Virus record (IMG/VR): IMGVR_UViG_3300037067_006488
Coordinates: 13,284-77,283 of that record
Length of the DNA stretch: 64,000 nt
Origin: a virus
Taxonomy: Duplodnaviria > Caudoviricetes
Direction: 5' to 3' (one strand)
Part shown: positions 1,892 through 7,752 of the stretch, one piece after another
Numbering within the stretch: the stretch's first letter is position 1
How the letters are laid out: each line of letters opens with the position of its first letter
Notes under the pieces: generated by a model
What the model was told of the DNA's origin: nothing
Seen by the model: the letters and a program-made list of their open reading frames with translations, nothing else
Databases searched by the model: none
Program-made: the position numbers and the translations under genes

Positions 1892-2068
1892 ATGCCGGGC
1901 AAGAGGACGTGGAGAGAAGACAATATCGAGCCAGCAATAGGAACAGAATACCTTATTTATAGCCCTTATTCCAAATCCCTGTACGAAAGCAGGGTAGAAG
2001 AATGGACTAATTGGGCTGTGCTTGACAGATACATAAAGGAAGGAAATGTTTATATACGAGAAAAATAA
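1892..2068 (+). CDS. Hypothetical protein
   Basis: In-frame ATG at 1892 within track ORF 1820-2068; stop abuts the next ATG. Confidence 0.45.
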   Translation: MPGKRTWREDNIEPAIGTEYLIYSPYSKSLYESRVEEWTNWAVLDRYIKEGNVYIREK

Positions 2069-3120
2069 TGGAAGACAAGACACAGAATATATGGGCTGAA
2101 TACTCTACCCTGCCTCCACCCTCGGTACAGCTAAGACGTTTTGATGACGGAAGGGATAATAGGTTTTATTGGTGGGTGTCTTATAACGAGGAAGCCCAAA
2201 TAATACCTAACACAGCAATAGGGATAACCTCTTTGCTTGGGATGGTGATGCCGACAAGCCCATTTATGACACAATGGAAACTGGATAACCCGAACTGGGA
2301 ACAGCTTTTTAAAGATAGTTCTGTATACGGTACTATCCTACATCAGATATACGGAGAATGGATTGTAAAGAGGACTGTTAACGATGATTTAGTGCAGGCT
2401 GCCCGTGCTATCGCCATCCGCACAGGAGGAGGATCGGATATGATAGACAAGAATATCATATCCTTTATGAAGTGGGTTGAGGATTACAACGTGAAGCCTT
2501 TACTGTGCGAGGCTATGTTGCTGTCAGCGCCGATAGAAGGCGAACAATATGCCCTTACCCTTGACTTGCTTTGCGAGCTGTCCGTAGAGGAGACCGTAGA
2601 GTTTGAGAAGGAGGACGGGGTGTATGTGAAGGGCGACAAAAAAGGACAGCCTAAGATAATAAAGATTAAAGAAACGTCTAAGGTTAAACGGTTAGCTCTT
2701 GTAGACTTCAAGTCTAACTTCTTCGACAAGGACAAGAAATCGTTCTACGATTCTCACCTTATGCAGTTGATCGGTGCGAGGAAGGCTATTAAACACAGCT
2801 ATCCCGATCTGAATGTAGATATAATTGCGAACCTCTCCCCTTCGGGGTGGAGAACAAAACCTGGGTATGATTTCTATATTTGGGAACCGACGTGGATAGA
2901 GGAAGCGTTGTTCGACAGTTATATCACGATTGCGAGGTTGAAGGGAATGTTTCAGCCGAAGGGCAGTATCTTCATGCCTCCAATATACAATGCAAATGCT
3001 AACTCCTCCGATTTCAGGATTGTCTCTTACCCCGAATATGTGTTGGGTATTCTTACGCCTCCCGAAGATAACCGAGAGGATTATACAGACGAGTTTAGTC
3101 CTATTCTTAACAGTATTTAG
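2068..3120 (+). CDS. PD-(D/E)XK phage exonuclease
   Basis: YGTILH..., CEAML, ALTLDLL, LVDFKS...QL motifs. Confidence 0.65.
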   Translation: MEDKTQNIWAEYSTLPPPSVQLRRFDDGRDNRFYWWVSYNEEAQIIPNTAIGITSLLGMVMPTSPFMTQWKLDNPNWEQLFKDSSVYGTILHQIYGEWIVKRTVNDDLVQAARAIAIRTGGGSDMIDKNIISFMKWVEDYNVKPLLCEAMLLSAPIEGEQYALTLDLLCELSVEETVEFEKEDGVYVKGDKKGQPKIIKIKETSKVKRLALVDFKSNFFDKDKKSFYDSHLMQLIGARKAIKHSYPDLNVDIIANLSPSGWRTKPGYDFYIWEPTWIEEALFDSYITIARLKGMFQPKGSIFMPPIYNANANSSDFRIVSYPEYVLGILTPPEDNREDYTDEFSPILNSI

Positions 3121-3125
3121 GATGA

Positions 3126-3437
3126 ATGACAAACAGCCAAAGCGCCTACTATCGGGGGGTGGTTATCCCAAGTATAATGAAGTGGCTAAACATAGACCTA
3201 ACGTTATACAAAACTGTCGCCCCCAAAATACATACTGCAATCAAGCACTGCTTCGGTATTCGCAGTATGCGAGATTTATCGGTACAGCAATTCGAGGTGT
3301 TTGCAGAAACATTACGAATGTTGTTTGTTCGGGAGTACGGGCTTCTAATCCCTACCCCTGACGAGAAAGACTTCGATGCAGAAAAAGCAACAATGCGGGA
3401 GTATTTAAGATTTAAAAGAAAACACAATGATTATTAA
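3126..3437 (+). CDS. Hypothetical protein (NinB/Orf-like)
   Basis: QSAYYRGVVIP...S.RDLS..QF..F.E pattern; tightly packed operon. Confidence 0.4.
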   Translation: MTNSQSAYYRGVVIPSIMKWLNIDLTLYKTVAPKIHTAIKHCFGIRSMRDLSVQQFEVFAETLRMLFVREYGLLIPTPDEKDFDAEKATMREYLRFKRKHNDY

Positions 3438-4002
3438 GATAAAAGTAAGACAAGAAGGGGTTGTGTACGAGTCAACAGGGTTGTTCTTCGTGGATGACTT
3501 TATATCCGAACAGGATTTAAACAGTTGGTTAACTACCCTTAATGCAGGGATAAGAGCGGGGTTGTATAAGGATTTTGTTAAGAACGATACGGTTTGTTTT
3601 GTTGTCGGCGAAGACAAGGGGGCTTTGCCCTTCATCCCCGAAACAGCAATAACAGACGACATAATAGATTTTATATGCGATAAGATGAGTTTGGGTATAG
3701 ACGACATAAAAACAACCTCCCGATCCAACAAGAGAAACGCATATTTAACAAGGTGTGTTGTTATTGGGGCTTTGCGGTTCTTTACTAAACTTGGCACGGC
3801 AGAGATAGGGGGAATATTTCAGAGAGACCATGCCTCTGTTGTGCATACTTGCAAGAGGGTATTACCTTCATTTTATTATCCGGTTAACCCTGTTGCGACC
3901 ACATTAATAAACAACGTCGCTATAAGGTATAACGACTCCCGTTTTATAGATGCTTGTAGGGAGGGAATATTTGCAAACAAAAGTGTAACAATATTAGACT
4001 AA
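3427..4002 (+). CDS. Protein with DnaA C-terminal (domain IV) HTH
   Basis: SR.NKR...TR......LR....LGTAEIGGIFQRDHASVVH.CKRV resembles the DnaA domain IV signature. Confidence 0.6.
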   Translation: MIIKIKVRQEGVVYESTGLFFVDDFISEQDLNSWLTTLNAGIRAGLYKDFVKNDTVCFVVGEDKGALPFIPETAITDDIIDFICDKMSLGIDDIKTTSRSNKRNAYLTRCVVIGALRFFTKLGTAEIGGIFQRDHASVVHTCKRVLPSFYYPVNPVATTLINNVAIRYNDSRFIDACREGIFANKSVTILD

Positions 4003-4003
4003 T

Positions 4004-4447
4004 ATGGACATAAACTTACCACACGAATTAAAAGGACGGGTTATTGCAAAGAGAGGCCCGTATATTGTGGGACAGAACAAGATCGAAAAACATCTGTTGT
4101 ATCTCGAATGTGATTATCCCAAGAGGGGGAAGGTGGAAACTACGAACGTTAAGGCTCTTTGTTGGGCTTGGGGAGGACACGCCTCCAAGATAGACCACAT
4201 ATTCCCCGGAGATATTGTTAAGTTCACCTTCTCTCTTTCGGGTAGGATGGACAACGACAGAAAAGACAAGAACGGAGCAGAAATGTGTTGGACGGAGGTT
4301 GTTATCGAAAGCAGACCGGAGGTGTTGGATTCTTCGCAGAGAAAGATGTACAACAACAACCCTGGCGAACTACCTTTAGGGGGAGTAGAGGGGATGCCTC
4401 CGTCGGAGGATTTAGGAAAGGAAGATTACAATGATTTACCTTTTTGA
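4004..4447 (+). CDS. DUF3127-like single-stranded DNA-binding protein
   Basis: KGRVI start, GD.VKF.FSLSGR, acidic tail ending DLPF. Confidence 0.6.
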   Translation: MDINLPHELKGRVIAKRGPYIVGQNKIEKHLLYLECDYPKRGKVETTNVKALCWAWGGHASKIDHIFPGDIVKFTFSLSGRMDNDRKDKNGAEMCWTEVVIESRPEVLDSSQRKMYNNNPGELPLGGVEGMPPSEDLGKEDYNDLPF

Positions 4448-4474
4448 TATTCAATTAATTAAACAAAAACAACG

Positions 4475-4840
4475 ATGAAAACACTACCAACAGAATTTAA
4501 CAAGAACGGAATGAAGTACCGGATAATAGACCGGAGCGAAACAAGGTACTTAGCAGAAGTGTATTCTCTTGAATCGGGTAATCTTGGCGCTTACGAAACC
4601 GGAAGGATATTAAGACACGAGGGGTTTAAGATTGGAGGAAGGGATGTAGAGGCAGGAGAAAACATAATCGGCAACGAAGCCTTCGGCAAAGATGCTTACG
4701 AGGGCGTTATGTCCCCCAAAAGTAAGGATGTTGTAGTAGGATGGTTTAAGGAAGGCACTATATCCGATATAAGGAAGGCAAAATTGAGTTCGCCAAAACA
4801 GGAACAGGACAAAGTGGATATAAGCATTGACTCGGAATAA
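4475..4840 (+). CDS. Hypothetical phage protein
   Basis: Intact ORF after an A-rich leader, in-operon. Confidence 0.6.
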   Translation: MKTLPTEFNKNGMKYRIIDRSETRYLAEVYSLESGNLGAYETGRILRHEGFKIGGRDVEAGENIIGNEAFGKDAYEGVMSPKSKDVVVGWFKEGTISDIRKAKLSSPKQEQDKVDISIDSE

Positions 4841-4872
4841 AAATCTGTACACAACTCTAAAAAACACACCTT

Positions 4873-5868
4873 ATGCAAATCGTAAAAAACATACAAGTTC
4901 CAACAGGAAATATTTGTGTAATGCAAGGAGAAAGGGGTTTATTGGAATTTTTATCAATCGGGGATTACGGTAAAGATTTAAACATTAAAGCTGATTTTCT
5001 TGGTATAACAAGGGAGTTGAACGGTGTCCCTAACGGGGAAATCATGCCCCTAACAGAGAAGTGGGTTATAACCATAAGCACACAATACGGCTGTTCAATG
5101 AACTGCAAGTTTTGTGATGTGCCTCTTGTCGGCAAAGGAATAAACGCAACGTTTAATGACTTAAAAAATCAAGTGGAATTAGCCTTATCGCTACACCCTG
5201 AAGTCGCACGTACCAAAAGGCTGAACATCCATTATGCAAGGATGGGGGAACCCACATTTAATAATTCAATATTAGATCACGCTATATATTTAAAAGAAAG
5301 TCATATTTTATATAACAGCCTTATTCATCCGGTAGTATCTACGATGATGCCCAAAAACAATAAAAGACTTTATTCTTTTATATCGGAGTGGATACATATA
5401 AAAAATGAATATTATAAAGGGAATGCGGGATTGCAGTTGTCTATTAACTCCACCGACAAACAGCAAAGAGAAGAAATGTTCTCAGGCAACGCTTCATCTC
5501 TTGAAGATATTGTTGAAATTATGGATTTAATGCCCGACCCTAAAGGAAGGAAATATACCCTAAACTTTGCATTGGCTGATAATTATATAATTGATGCTGA
5601 ATATTTAGCGCAGCTATTTGATCCTAAAAGATTTATGGTGAAAATCACCCCTTTACATAAAACCAAAAGCTGTAAAGATAATGGTATTGTTACAACTGGT
5701 GGATATGACAAGTTTACACCCTATAAAGAAACTGAAACCAACCTCAAGAAATGGGGATTTGATGTTATTGTGTTCGTTCCCTCTTATGATGAGGATTTAG
5801 GGATGATAACTTGTGGGAACGCTGTTCTTTCCGGTAATATGCCCAAAACAAAATATTTTGTGATATGA
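4873..5868 (+). CDS. RlmN/Cfr-family radical SAM protein
   Basis: ISTQYGCSMNCKFC (CxxxCxxC), RMGEP, LSINS..R.E and C-terminal TCGNA all align with RlmN motifs. Confidence 0.85.
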   Translation: MQIVKNIQVPTGNICVMQGERGLLEFLSIGDYGKDLNIKADFLGITRELNGVPNGEIMPLTEKWVITISTQYGCSMNCKFCDVPLVGKGINATFNDLKNQVELALSLHPEVARTKRLNIHYARMGEPTFNNSILDHAIYLKESHILYNSLIHPVVSTMMPKNNKRLYSFISEWIHIKNEYYKGNAGLQLSINSTDKQQREEMFSGNASSLEDIVEIMDLMPDPKGRKYTLNFALADNYIIDAEYLAQLFDPKRFMVKITPLHKTKSCKDNGIVTTGGYDKFTPYKETETNLKKWGFDVIVFVPSYDEDLGMITCGNAVLSGNMPKTKYFVI

Positions 5869-6332
5869 GTGAAATAATATTAGCCTTAGACCAAGGCAAC
5901 ATAATGACAGGGTTTGTTGTCTTTAACGGGGAAGAAATACTTGATATGGGGAAACTGTTGAACCACGAGATACTTGAATATATCTACGCCCGCAAGAATA
6001 TAAACACAGTAGTAATAGAACGCTTTGGTTCTTACGGTATGCCTGTTGGGGAGACAACTCTTGGCTCTGTACATTGGGGAGGGCGGTTTGAAGAAGCAGG
6101 GATAGTATCGGGAAAGAAAGTCGTCCGCATATTTCGTAAAGACGTGAAGATTGCTCTTTGCGGGAGTATGAAAGCTAAAGATGTTAATATAAGACAGGCG
6201 CTGATAGATCGGTTTGAGCCTAACCTCGAAGCCAACAAGAGACCCAAGGGAATATTAAAAGACGTAAGCAAGGATATGTGGAGTGCTTTAGCCCTTGCGG
6301 TTGTGTATTTAGACGGTAAGGCGAATATTTAA
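5865..6332 (+). CDS. RuvC-like Holliday junction resolvase
   Basis: ILALDQG, VVIE, and D.WSALALA acidic-triad pattern. Confidence 0.75.
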   Translation: MSEIILALDQGNIMTGFVVFNGEEILDMGKLLNHEILEYIYARKNINTVVIERFGSYGMPVGETTLGSVHWGGRFEEAGIVSGKKVVRIFRKDVKIALCGSMKAKDVNIRQALIDRFEPNLEANKRPKGILKDVSKDMWSALALAVVYLDGKANI

Positions 6333-6385
6333 CACCATGAAAGGATGAACTGGACAAACCACGACCAAAATTATTTAACAGAAAG

Positions 6386-6598
6386 ATGATAATGAAAAAT
6401 CAGATATTACAAGGCAACGTATTTGAACTTATCAAAACACTTCCCGACAAGTCGGTTAATTGTTGCGTTACATCCCCGCCTTACTATGGGTTAAGGGATT
6501 ACGGAGTTGAAGGGCAGTTAGGACTTGAATCTACTCCCGAACTGTATGTTGAAAAGATGGTAGAGGTGTTCAGGGGTGTTATGAGGATAGTACGCTGA
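6386..6598 (+). pseudogene. Truncated N4C/N6A DNA methyltransferase (N-terminal 70 aa only)
   Basis: ILQGNV...DKSVNCCVTSPPYYGLRDYG motif IV present; stops after VMRIVR with no SAM-binding FxGxG region in any downstream frame. Confidence 0.75.
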
Positions 6599-6868
6599 AT
6601 TTTACAAGATATACCGTAAAAGAAAAGGACGGCAGTTTATCGTATTATGCGGTAGGCGTTGCTGATTTAATATCCTTTGACCTATTTAATGTAAAAGAAA
6701 TAGAATGTGTTTATAAACACCGAACCCCCACCTTCGAAGGCTTTGCAGAGTATCTGAAACGTAAATATGTGAAAGAATGAAAACATTATTTATTGTTTTA
6801 TTTATACTAATATTAGTATTTGTGACTGTTACTGATGATACTGATTATCCAATATAAAAATCAACAAA

Positions 6869-7168
6869 ATGAAAAAAGAGCTTCAAGCAAAAAATAATTT
6901 TGAAATTATTCTTGCGTTTATTGCTGTAGTGGTTATGGTGTTGATACAGGTTTTTTTAAACGAAATTTACGATGTTAAAGGATTTTGGAATACCCCATAT
7001 ATACTTATAGACATTATAATAACAACCATAATTACCGTATTTGATTTTTCGTTTTTAATTTTTTTATCAATGGTAATTTGTAATGATAAGCCCCCTAAAT
7101 TTTTGGCTATTATGGTAATAATTGGTATTTTGCTTATATTTATTTATTCCTGTATAGAGGCATGGTAA
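6869..7168 (+). CDS. Small membrane protein (about 3 TM)
   Basis: Three hydrophobic stretches; very AT-rich. Confidence 0.55.
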   Translation: MKKELQAKNNFEIILAFIAVVVMVLIQVFLNEIYDVKGFWNTPYILIDIIITTIITVFDFSFLIFLSMVICNDKPPKFLAIMVIIGILLIFIYSCIEAW

Positions 7169-7752
7169 TGAATTTAAGAATGGGAAAGCTAACAGAGCTT
7201 GCCCGGAACAAAGCCGTTTTACATATCGGCTTCGCCGATGCACAAACCTATCCTATTAAAATAGAAAGAGGGTTATGGTTACACGGGTTGCTTGTTGATG
7301 TGGCTAAGTTGTGTGTTGGTGTTGATACCGATAAGAAAGCCGTAAAGGATTTAAAGGCAACGGGTATCAAATATCTTTATACAAACATGAACGACGTAAT
7401 AGGATTGAAATTTGATTTTATCCTTTTAGGAGAGACGCTTGAACACGTTGATAACCCTGTTTTATTTCTAAAGGTTATTAAAAAGAAATTTCCAGGCACT
7501 CCTTTGGTGCTTACCGTACCCAATGCTTTCAGAATACGCAATTTCACAAACGCATTACGAGGCAAAGAGGCCATCAATACGGATCACCGATATTGGTTCA
7601 CCCCCTTTACGATTCAGAAGGTTTTAACACAAGCGGGTTATGAAATTAAGGATATTGAAATGGTAGAATCATATCAACGAGTTTTGTCTAAACGCCTTTT
7701 TATAACCAAATTTCATTATTTTAGAGACACTATTTTAATACGAACAACATGA
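7162..7752 (+). CDS. Class I SAM-dependent methyltransferase
   Basis: VLHIGF.D, VGVD, FDFILLGETLEHVDNP...L..PN, H.YWF motifs. Confidence 0.75.
   Translation: MVMNLRMGKLTELARNKAVLHIGFADAQTYPIKIERGLWLHGLLVDVAKLCVGVDTDKKAVKDLKATGIKYLYTNMNDVIGLKFDFILLGETLEHVDNPVLFLKVIKKKFPGTPLVLTVPNAFRIRNFTNALRGKEAINTDHRYWFTPFTIQKVLTQAGYEIKDIEMVESYQRVLSKRLFITKFHYFRDTILIRTT

Follow-up and report, generated by a model that had tools for sequence, protein, structure and literature searches.

The gene at positions 4873–5868 (+ strand) of the window, the whole 64,000-nucleotide stretch of viral DNA analyzed here, encodes a predicted stand-alone radical-SAM enzyme (rSAM) that derives from the RlmN/Cfr core and belongs to a separate, mostly viral family; with modest confidence, we assign to it a small substrate of NAD(P) metabolism and not rRNA or tRNA. 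The reading frame runs from ATG to stop and specifies 331 amino acids. The window belongs to an IMG/VR viral record of 77 kb with an estimated completeness of 67%, and the nearest isolate is the Bacteroides phage Versailles, in which a homolog annotated as "radical SAM domain-containing protein" (WAK79139.1) shares 64% identity with the query. The gene sits in the + strand early/replication block of the phage, together with an exonuclease-like gene (2068–3120, +; phrog_298, E=4e-5), a DnaA_C-type HTH gene (3427–4002, +), and, 1.3 kb downstream, a class I methyltransferase gene (7162–7752, +). It ends in an ATGA at 5865–5868, in which the stop codon and the start codon of the following gene overlap; this following gene (5865–6332) encodes a RuvC-like Holliday-junction resolvase (phrog_1770). 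A 70-aa ORF at 6386–6598 (+) matches the N6_N4 DNA methylase profile (221 positions) over the initial 42 positions only, a part that contains the SPPY motif; since the match stops early and the 77-kb record contains no further pieces of such a methylase, this ORF has the look of a phage DNA methyltransferase remnant.

RlmN is the dual-specificity C2 methyl synthase of 23S rRNA A2503 and tRNA A37, whereas Cfr is the C8 methyl synthase of 23S rRNA A2503 and confers antibiotic resistance. In the Escherichia coli RlmN, Cys355 of the ACGQL motif carries the methyl group, and Cys118 is the second mechanistic, resolving cysteine. To our knowledge, RlmN and Cfr are the only class A radical-SAM methyl synthases described, and both are RNA enzymes with two required cysteines. 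The query falls far below the NCBIfam cut-offs of both families, with single-sequence scores of 26.7 and 27.2 bits versus 290 bits for TIGR00048 (RlmN) and 550 bits for TIGR04432 (Cfr), and its score of 23 bits against Pfam Radical_SAM is under the gathering score. A phmmer search of PDB with the query alone matched RlmN with E=5e-4, the match being confined to residues 58–131. A profile built from 20 family members extended the alignment with RlmN (6FZ6) to about 285 positions (profile positions 40–324, E=9.5e-18) and matched Cfr (PDB 9P0P) with E=2e-14. An AlphaFold2 model computed from 55 sequences (pLDDT 93.7, pTM 0.92) gave the RlmN structures 6FZ6, 5HR7, and 3RFA as the best Foldseek matches in PDB (TM 0.64–0.65), followed by Cfr with TM 0.53 and by other radical-SAM folds with TM of at most 0.48. 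The query is therefore a true distant homolog of RlmN and Cfr, with homology far beyond chance, and it is not a member of either family. The family to which it does belong is phrog_24834, annotated as "unknown function", which it matches at full length (E=9.9e-146, residues 1–328 on profile positions 1–331 of 336).

Comparison of the query with RlmN and Cfr revealed which elements of the class A scaffold were retained: (i) the xSxQxGCxxxCxFC cluster motif, (ii) the MGEP motif for SAM binding, and (iii) the C-terminal cysteine of the CG(Q/N) motif, all on the same radical-SAM core. Residues 66–81 of the protein read ITISTQYGCSMNCKFC; within them, residues 69–81 form the SxQxGCxxxCxFC motif with its CxxxCxxC ligands, which is invariant across the family. 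The codons for Cys74-x3-Cys78-x2-Cys81 (GCSMNCKFC), the [4Fe-4S]/SAM cluster motif, occupy positions 5092–5115 (+); the family-specific Asp82 comes next. Arg123-Met-Gly-Glu-Pro127, the GGE-like SAM-binding motif that is also found in RlmN (MGMGEP), is encoded at 5239–5253 (+). Cys314 (codon 5812–5814, +) lies in TCGNA, residues 313–317, and the profile alignment places the family tCGn on aCGq, the Cys355 motif of RlmN. The preliminary description had noted that both RMGEP and TCGNA are kept, and it had read a threonine at the Cys118 position. The same threonine, Thr67 (codon 5071–5073, +), occupies the Cys118 column in HMMER alignments to the solved RlmN chains, in which the C118A crystal variant 4PL1 has the expected alanine. 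The equivalences Thr67/Cys118 and Cys314/Cys355 rest on sequence and profile alignment.

Judging from the family alignment, the loss of Cys118 is a trait of the whole family and not of the query alone. None of the 316 members has a cysteine at the position seven residues before the first cluster cysteine; it is filled by Thr in 282 members, by Ile in 15, and by Ala, Val, or Asn in five each, whereas cysteine was found there in all seven RlmN controls. The C-terminal xCGx, in turn, is kept in 304 of the 316 members, and the proposal of an RlmN/Cfr-derived enzyme with a methyl-carrier cysteine and without a resolving one thus holds for the query and for the family. A substitute cysteine was looked for as well. 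The conserved cysteines are limited to the three cluster ligands, C74, C78, and C81, which are invariant or nearly so, and Cys314; Cys15 and Cys267 of the query are not conserved, and the family alignment has no alternative conserved resolving cysteine. Two acidic residues that set the family apart from RlmN, the invariant Glu25 and Asp82, which directly follows the third cluster cysteine in 90% of members, are candidates for a base replacing Cys118.

The query, about 20% identical to RlmN, differs from it and from Cfr in further features. The N-terminal accessory region had been described as shorter, yet it is the domain itself that is absent: the RlmN_N domain (PF21016), which was detected in a control RlmN, has no match in the query, and the AlphaFold2 model predicts three beta strands in its place. 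The family also has a near-neutral pI (median 6.3), compared to 7.6–8.9 in the RlmN controls. The antibiotic resistance function of Cfr has no counterpart among our results, nothing in the analysis pointing to one.

The family is very large and predominantly viral. It comprises 657 representatives at 50% identity (E<=1e-3) and over 7,000 clusters at 90% identity (E<=1e-10); at least 500 IMG/VR contigs carry a member, and the look-alike clusters in ESM-Atlas are 83–88% viral. In a tree rooted with RlmN, the whole family lies on one long branch away from RlmN. Many metagenomic members (P0152, P0169, P0176, and others) were automatically annotated as "23S rRNA (adenine2503-C2)-methyltransferase", and one phage record (PQ434692) names a member "ribosomal RNA large subunit methyltransferase N"; such RlmN-type names are probably wrong. 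When the family profile was searched against 301 genomes of one Clostridial order, it mostly recovered housekeeping RlmN (276 of 301 genomes, E about 1e-11 to 1e-20) and no cellular paralogs of interest. One of these matches (L103) was checked: the presence of RlmN_N and the rsmB-rlmN-stp neighborhood confirmed it as RlmN. The same search gave one better match, a 261-aa family-like radical-SAM protein (locus L102, G238:C11, about 3000–7156); next to its gene are one that resembles NUMOD3 homing endonucleases, another for a radical-SAM protein, and one for an AAA/STAND-type NTPase, a context that looks like a mobile element or defense island.

The main functional clue for the family is its association with NAD salvage. 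At 14 of 79 genome loci, the rSAM gene, encoding a protein 46–56% identical to the query, lies within or beside an NAD(P) salvage cluster; with one phage lineage included, the homologs in this context are 46–65% identical to the query, and the genome loci come from at least five phyla. In contrast, the control RlmN context is rsmB-rlmN-stp-prkC. The partners in the NAD clusters are PncA, PncB, an NMNAT-like adenylyltransferase, NadE, NAD kinase, CinA/PncC, Nudix proteins, and the regulator NrtR. PncB passes its family threshold (TIGR01513, 441 bits versus a cut-off of 297 bits), the score of NadE is 200 bits, and both domains of NrtR are present. Gene order varies among Alphaproteobacteria, Firmicutes, Patescibacteria, Peregrinibacteria, Woesearchaeota, and others: pncB-pncA-rSAM-nadE-DUF5662-nrtR in gut Alphaproteobacteria; nrtR-rSAM-x-NMNAT-like-NAD kinase-pncB-nadE-pncA in a Patescibacterium; pncA-pncB-(Nudix)-rSAM/nadE-NMNAT-like-CinA-nrtR-NAD kinase at two Firmicute-type loci; rSAM-NMNAT-nrtR in a Woesearchaeote; and nadE-NMNAT-rSAM in a Peregrinibacterium. 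Four more loci have a single NMNAT-like, pncB, or nadE neighbor, and in the distant member P0046 an NMNAT-like gene comes next. Intergenic gaps in the core NAD operons are often below 20 bp. In the phage lineage, represented by one viral contig seen in two samples (L188/L213 and L214), the order is PncA-x-PncB-NadE-rSAM. By a rough estimate, pncB would be expected by chance within 6 kb of the rSAM gene at about 0.3 of the 79 loci, and it was observed at nine, which represent roughly eight to ten independent arrangements.

Some members of these clusters touch on other functions. In the alphaproteobacterial NAD operons L042, L043, L045, L061, and L063, a DUF5662 protein of about 165 aa (for example, L043:7717–8214) is encoded between nadE and nrtR, and in L063 its gene lies between the rSAM gene and nrtR. 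It is the second member of these clusters without an assigned role. A Firmicute-type NAD cluster encodes, between CinA and NrtR, a protein of 650 aa that has a class I SAM methyltransferase domain (L037:8886–10838); the class I methyltransferase of the window is unrelated to it.

The gene of this phage is a solo auxiliary cassette. The 77-kb record contains no NAD genes beside it, and the gene is solo at about 86 of the 88 viral loci sampled. Neighbor clustering of 79 genome loci and 80 viral loci revealed no conserved partner gene in phages or prophages, and none of the rSAM neighbors in this window, the class I methyltransferase included, recurs with rSAM among the 159 other loci. Annotated phage records with distant homologs (from Aeromonas, Salmonella, and Stenotrophomonas phages) were uninformative, the neighbors being almost all hypothetical. 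The link to NAD is thus drawn from the cellular relatives and the one phage lineage. In the RlmN-rooted tree, all subclades of the clade that holds the query contain NAD-context members, which are mixed among the phage copies.

The strongest alternative, which we consider unlikely, is that these radical-SAM proteins are of unrelated or mixed function and that the NAD neighborhood reflects co-mobilization on phage-derived islands with no common pathway. The predominance of solo cassettes without a conserved partner would fit this explanation, and so would the MAG origin of several NAD-cluster loci; some of these contigs are of uncertain origin, which weighs against the NAD reading. The distant clades point in the same direction: they are fused to, or adjoin, isochorismatase-type amidohydrolases and thioredoxin-reductase-like flavoproteins, and since these clades have such other partners, the rSAM superfamily is functionally mixed. 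On the other hand, the operons hold the gene in their interior and not on their borders, and they come with NrtR regulators; at least five phyla have it in differing arrangements, it is found repeatedly in the species of one alphaproteobacterial lineage, and the proximity to pncB far exceeds the rough chance estimate given above. In the distant "CPVxC" clade, the thioredoxin-reductase-like flavoprotein either precedes the rSAM gene (L107:2981–4902) or is fused to it (P0113), and it may be a dedicated reductase for the rSAM cluster.

A quite unlikely alternative is a nucleic-acid substrate, with the enzyme acting as an adenine C-methyltransferase of RNA (tRNA or rRNA) or DNA that uses another residue in place of Cys118, or as a suicide enzyme that captures host RNA by cross-linking. 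The homology and common fold with RlmN, the kept Cys355 equivalent, and the RlmN-like active-site motifs would all suit a nucleic-acid adenine and to that extent count against a substrate from the NAD pathway. A location in the phage replication/early operon beside Holliday-junction resolvase and methyltransferase genes would be in line with nucleic-acid modification, as would one distant phage homolog that lies inside a tRNA gene array. Against these points stand the missing RlmN_N RNA-binding domain, for which the control RlmN was positive, the lower pI, the ties of the family to NAD operons and its fusions to importers, and the lack of recurrence of any neighbor from this window. The covalent trapping of host rRNA or tRNA that the preliminary description had put forward is unlikely, because the Cys118 loss is universal and is shared by housekeeping members of bacterial and archaeal NAD operons; the absent RlmN_N, the near-neutral proteins, and the relatives fused to a small-molecule importer count further against it. 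Its suggestion of a DNA base as a substrate gained no support from anything found here. Its more general proposal, another substrate and/or a different resolution chemistry, fits the NAD context, the Cys118 loss, and the absence of RlmN_N.

The importer fusions occur in a subclade 32–38% identical to the query, in which an N-terminal ECF S-component is joined to the rSAM domain (P0031, P0039, P0035, and P0056). The fused domains of P0031 and P0039 pass the Pfam QueT threshold (37–40 bits versus 33.7 bits), and P0035 and P0056 carry related ECF S-components. By its domain assignment, the fused importer argues for a small-molecule substrate, and the QueT-passing fusions would point to 7-deazaguanine precursors, and not to niacin, for this subclade. 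Two of the four fusions also have a C-terminal PNP_UDP_1 nucleosidase domain, and that of P0039 is a genuine MTA/SAH/5'-deoxyadenosine nucleosidase (224 bits versus a cut-off of 169 bits). Nucleosidases of this type clear SAH and 5'-deoxyadenosine, the two by-products of class A chemistry. The fused nucleosidase thus tells little about the substrate. The isochorismatase-type amidohydrolases fused to more distant members are a further hint of a small molecule.

QueL and its queK-qrtT-queL operon reportedly go back to Yuan et al. in 2019. According to two papers (PMC11130926, PMC11477304), QueL is the radical-SAM queuine lyase of this operon, which is of the C. difficile type. The QueT-rSAM-nucleosidase fusions had prompted the idea that the rSAM family is the QueL ortholog. 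Both have a radical-SAM enzyme beside or fused to an ECF S-component for small heterocyclic nutrients, and thereby a common logic of importer plus radical enzyme; QueL differs in having a riboswitch and QueK partners, which the rSAM family lacks. We recovered six operons with preQ1-I riboswitches that encode QueK (IU_nuc_hydro, 309 bits), an ECF S-component, and a 229-aa CX4CX2C protein. The six 229-aa proteins gave no match to the family HMM at E<=10 and an hhalign probability of 3%. Orthology with QueL was thus ruled out, the radical-SAM protein of the six operons being unrelated to the family. A non-orthologous analog of QueL, or an enzyme of another Q-salvage step whose product would supply the modification of host tRNA or of phage DNA, would agree with the S-component fusions and with the report that some bacteria lack a recognized replacement for QueL (PMC12632869). 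Such a role is very improbable for the query, while the fused subclade may act in 7-deazaguanine metabolism. Several results count against the role: the enzyme and the S-component of genuine Q-salvage operons are unrelated to the rSAM family and to the fused domain, respectively, no Rfam element or riboswitch was matched in the window or at the fusion locus L082, where a preQ1 riboswitch would be sought ahead of the fusion gene, and the annotated clusters around members had no noted Q gene and repeatedly had NAD genes. 7-Deazaguanine modification of the DNA of this phage was considered separately and set aside, since no TGT or DpdA is encoded in the record.

Returning to the assignment to NAD(P) metabolism, we propose the following mechanism. 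The enzyme would bind a free nucleotide or base from the NAD pathway, with either pyridine or adenine as its ring. The 5'-deoxyadenosyl radical and Cys314 would then most likely bring about the transfer of a methyl group to an sp2 carbon of the ring, in the manner of class A enzymes, and the resulting adduct would be resolved by a base other than cysteine, for which Glu25 and Asp82 were named above. Close behind this possibility comes a non-methylating reaction in which Cys314 would serve as a hydrogen-atom donor or a nucleophile. That the phage enzyme applies radical chemistry of the RlmN type to such a free nucleotide or base, for instance, in the C-methylation of a pyridine or adenine ring, is a tentative proposal that we put forward with low confidence. 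In the phage, the solo auxiliary gene in the early/replication operon would work with the NAD enzymes of the host. A plausible benefit is that the NAD pool would be sustained or altered during infection, for example, against NAD-depleting defense systems.

Phage NAD+ reconstitution pathways are known as NARP1, NARP2, and NARP3 (bioRxiv 10.1101/2024.02.11.579819; PMC13464706). Similar to them, the gene described here is phage-borne and is linked to NAD metabolism, with PncA, PncB, and NadE encoded next to rSAM in one phage lineage; the described pathways differ in that they include no radical-SAM enzyme, and a counter-defense role of rSAM is putative. In the literature searched, we found neither a description of the rSAM family nor a link of a radical-SAM enzyme to NrtR, NAD salvage, or the NARP pathways. 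If the proposal is true, the reaction would add to NAD salvage a step that has not been described, or would give phages a new means of keeping or disguising NAD when bacterial NAD-depleting defense sets in, and no class A radical-SAM methyl synthase before it would have had a small molecule as its substrate. The interest of the family lies in its very large size combined with the retention of one RlmN cysteine and the loss of the other together with the RNA-binding domain, and in its presence in phages and in NAD operons of organisms as different as CPR bacteria and gut Alphaproteobacteria. Once identified, the reaction could add an unrecognized step to NAD metabolism and broaden the known chemistry of an enzyme class that is well studied; it might also reveal a new phage countermeasure to NAD-depleting immunity.

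Two further loci are of interest for their gene content. At L083:6971–8185, the gene for P0046 is followed by the NMNAT-like gene and by a second, small radical-SAM gene (234 aa) with weak MoaA/viperin-like matches; from their annotations, the three genes could form a nucleotide-modifying unit. On the viral contig with the PncA-PncB-NadE-rSAM arrangement, an RtcB RNA ligase (398 bits) is encoded about 3 kb downstream (L188:13800–15002).
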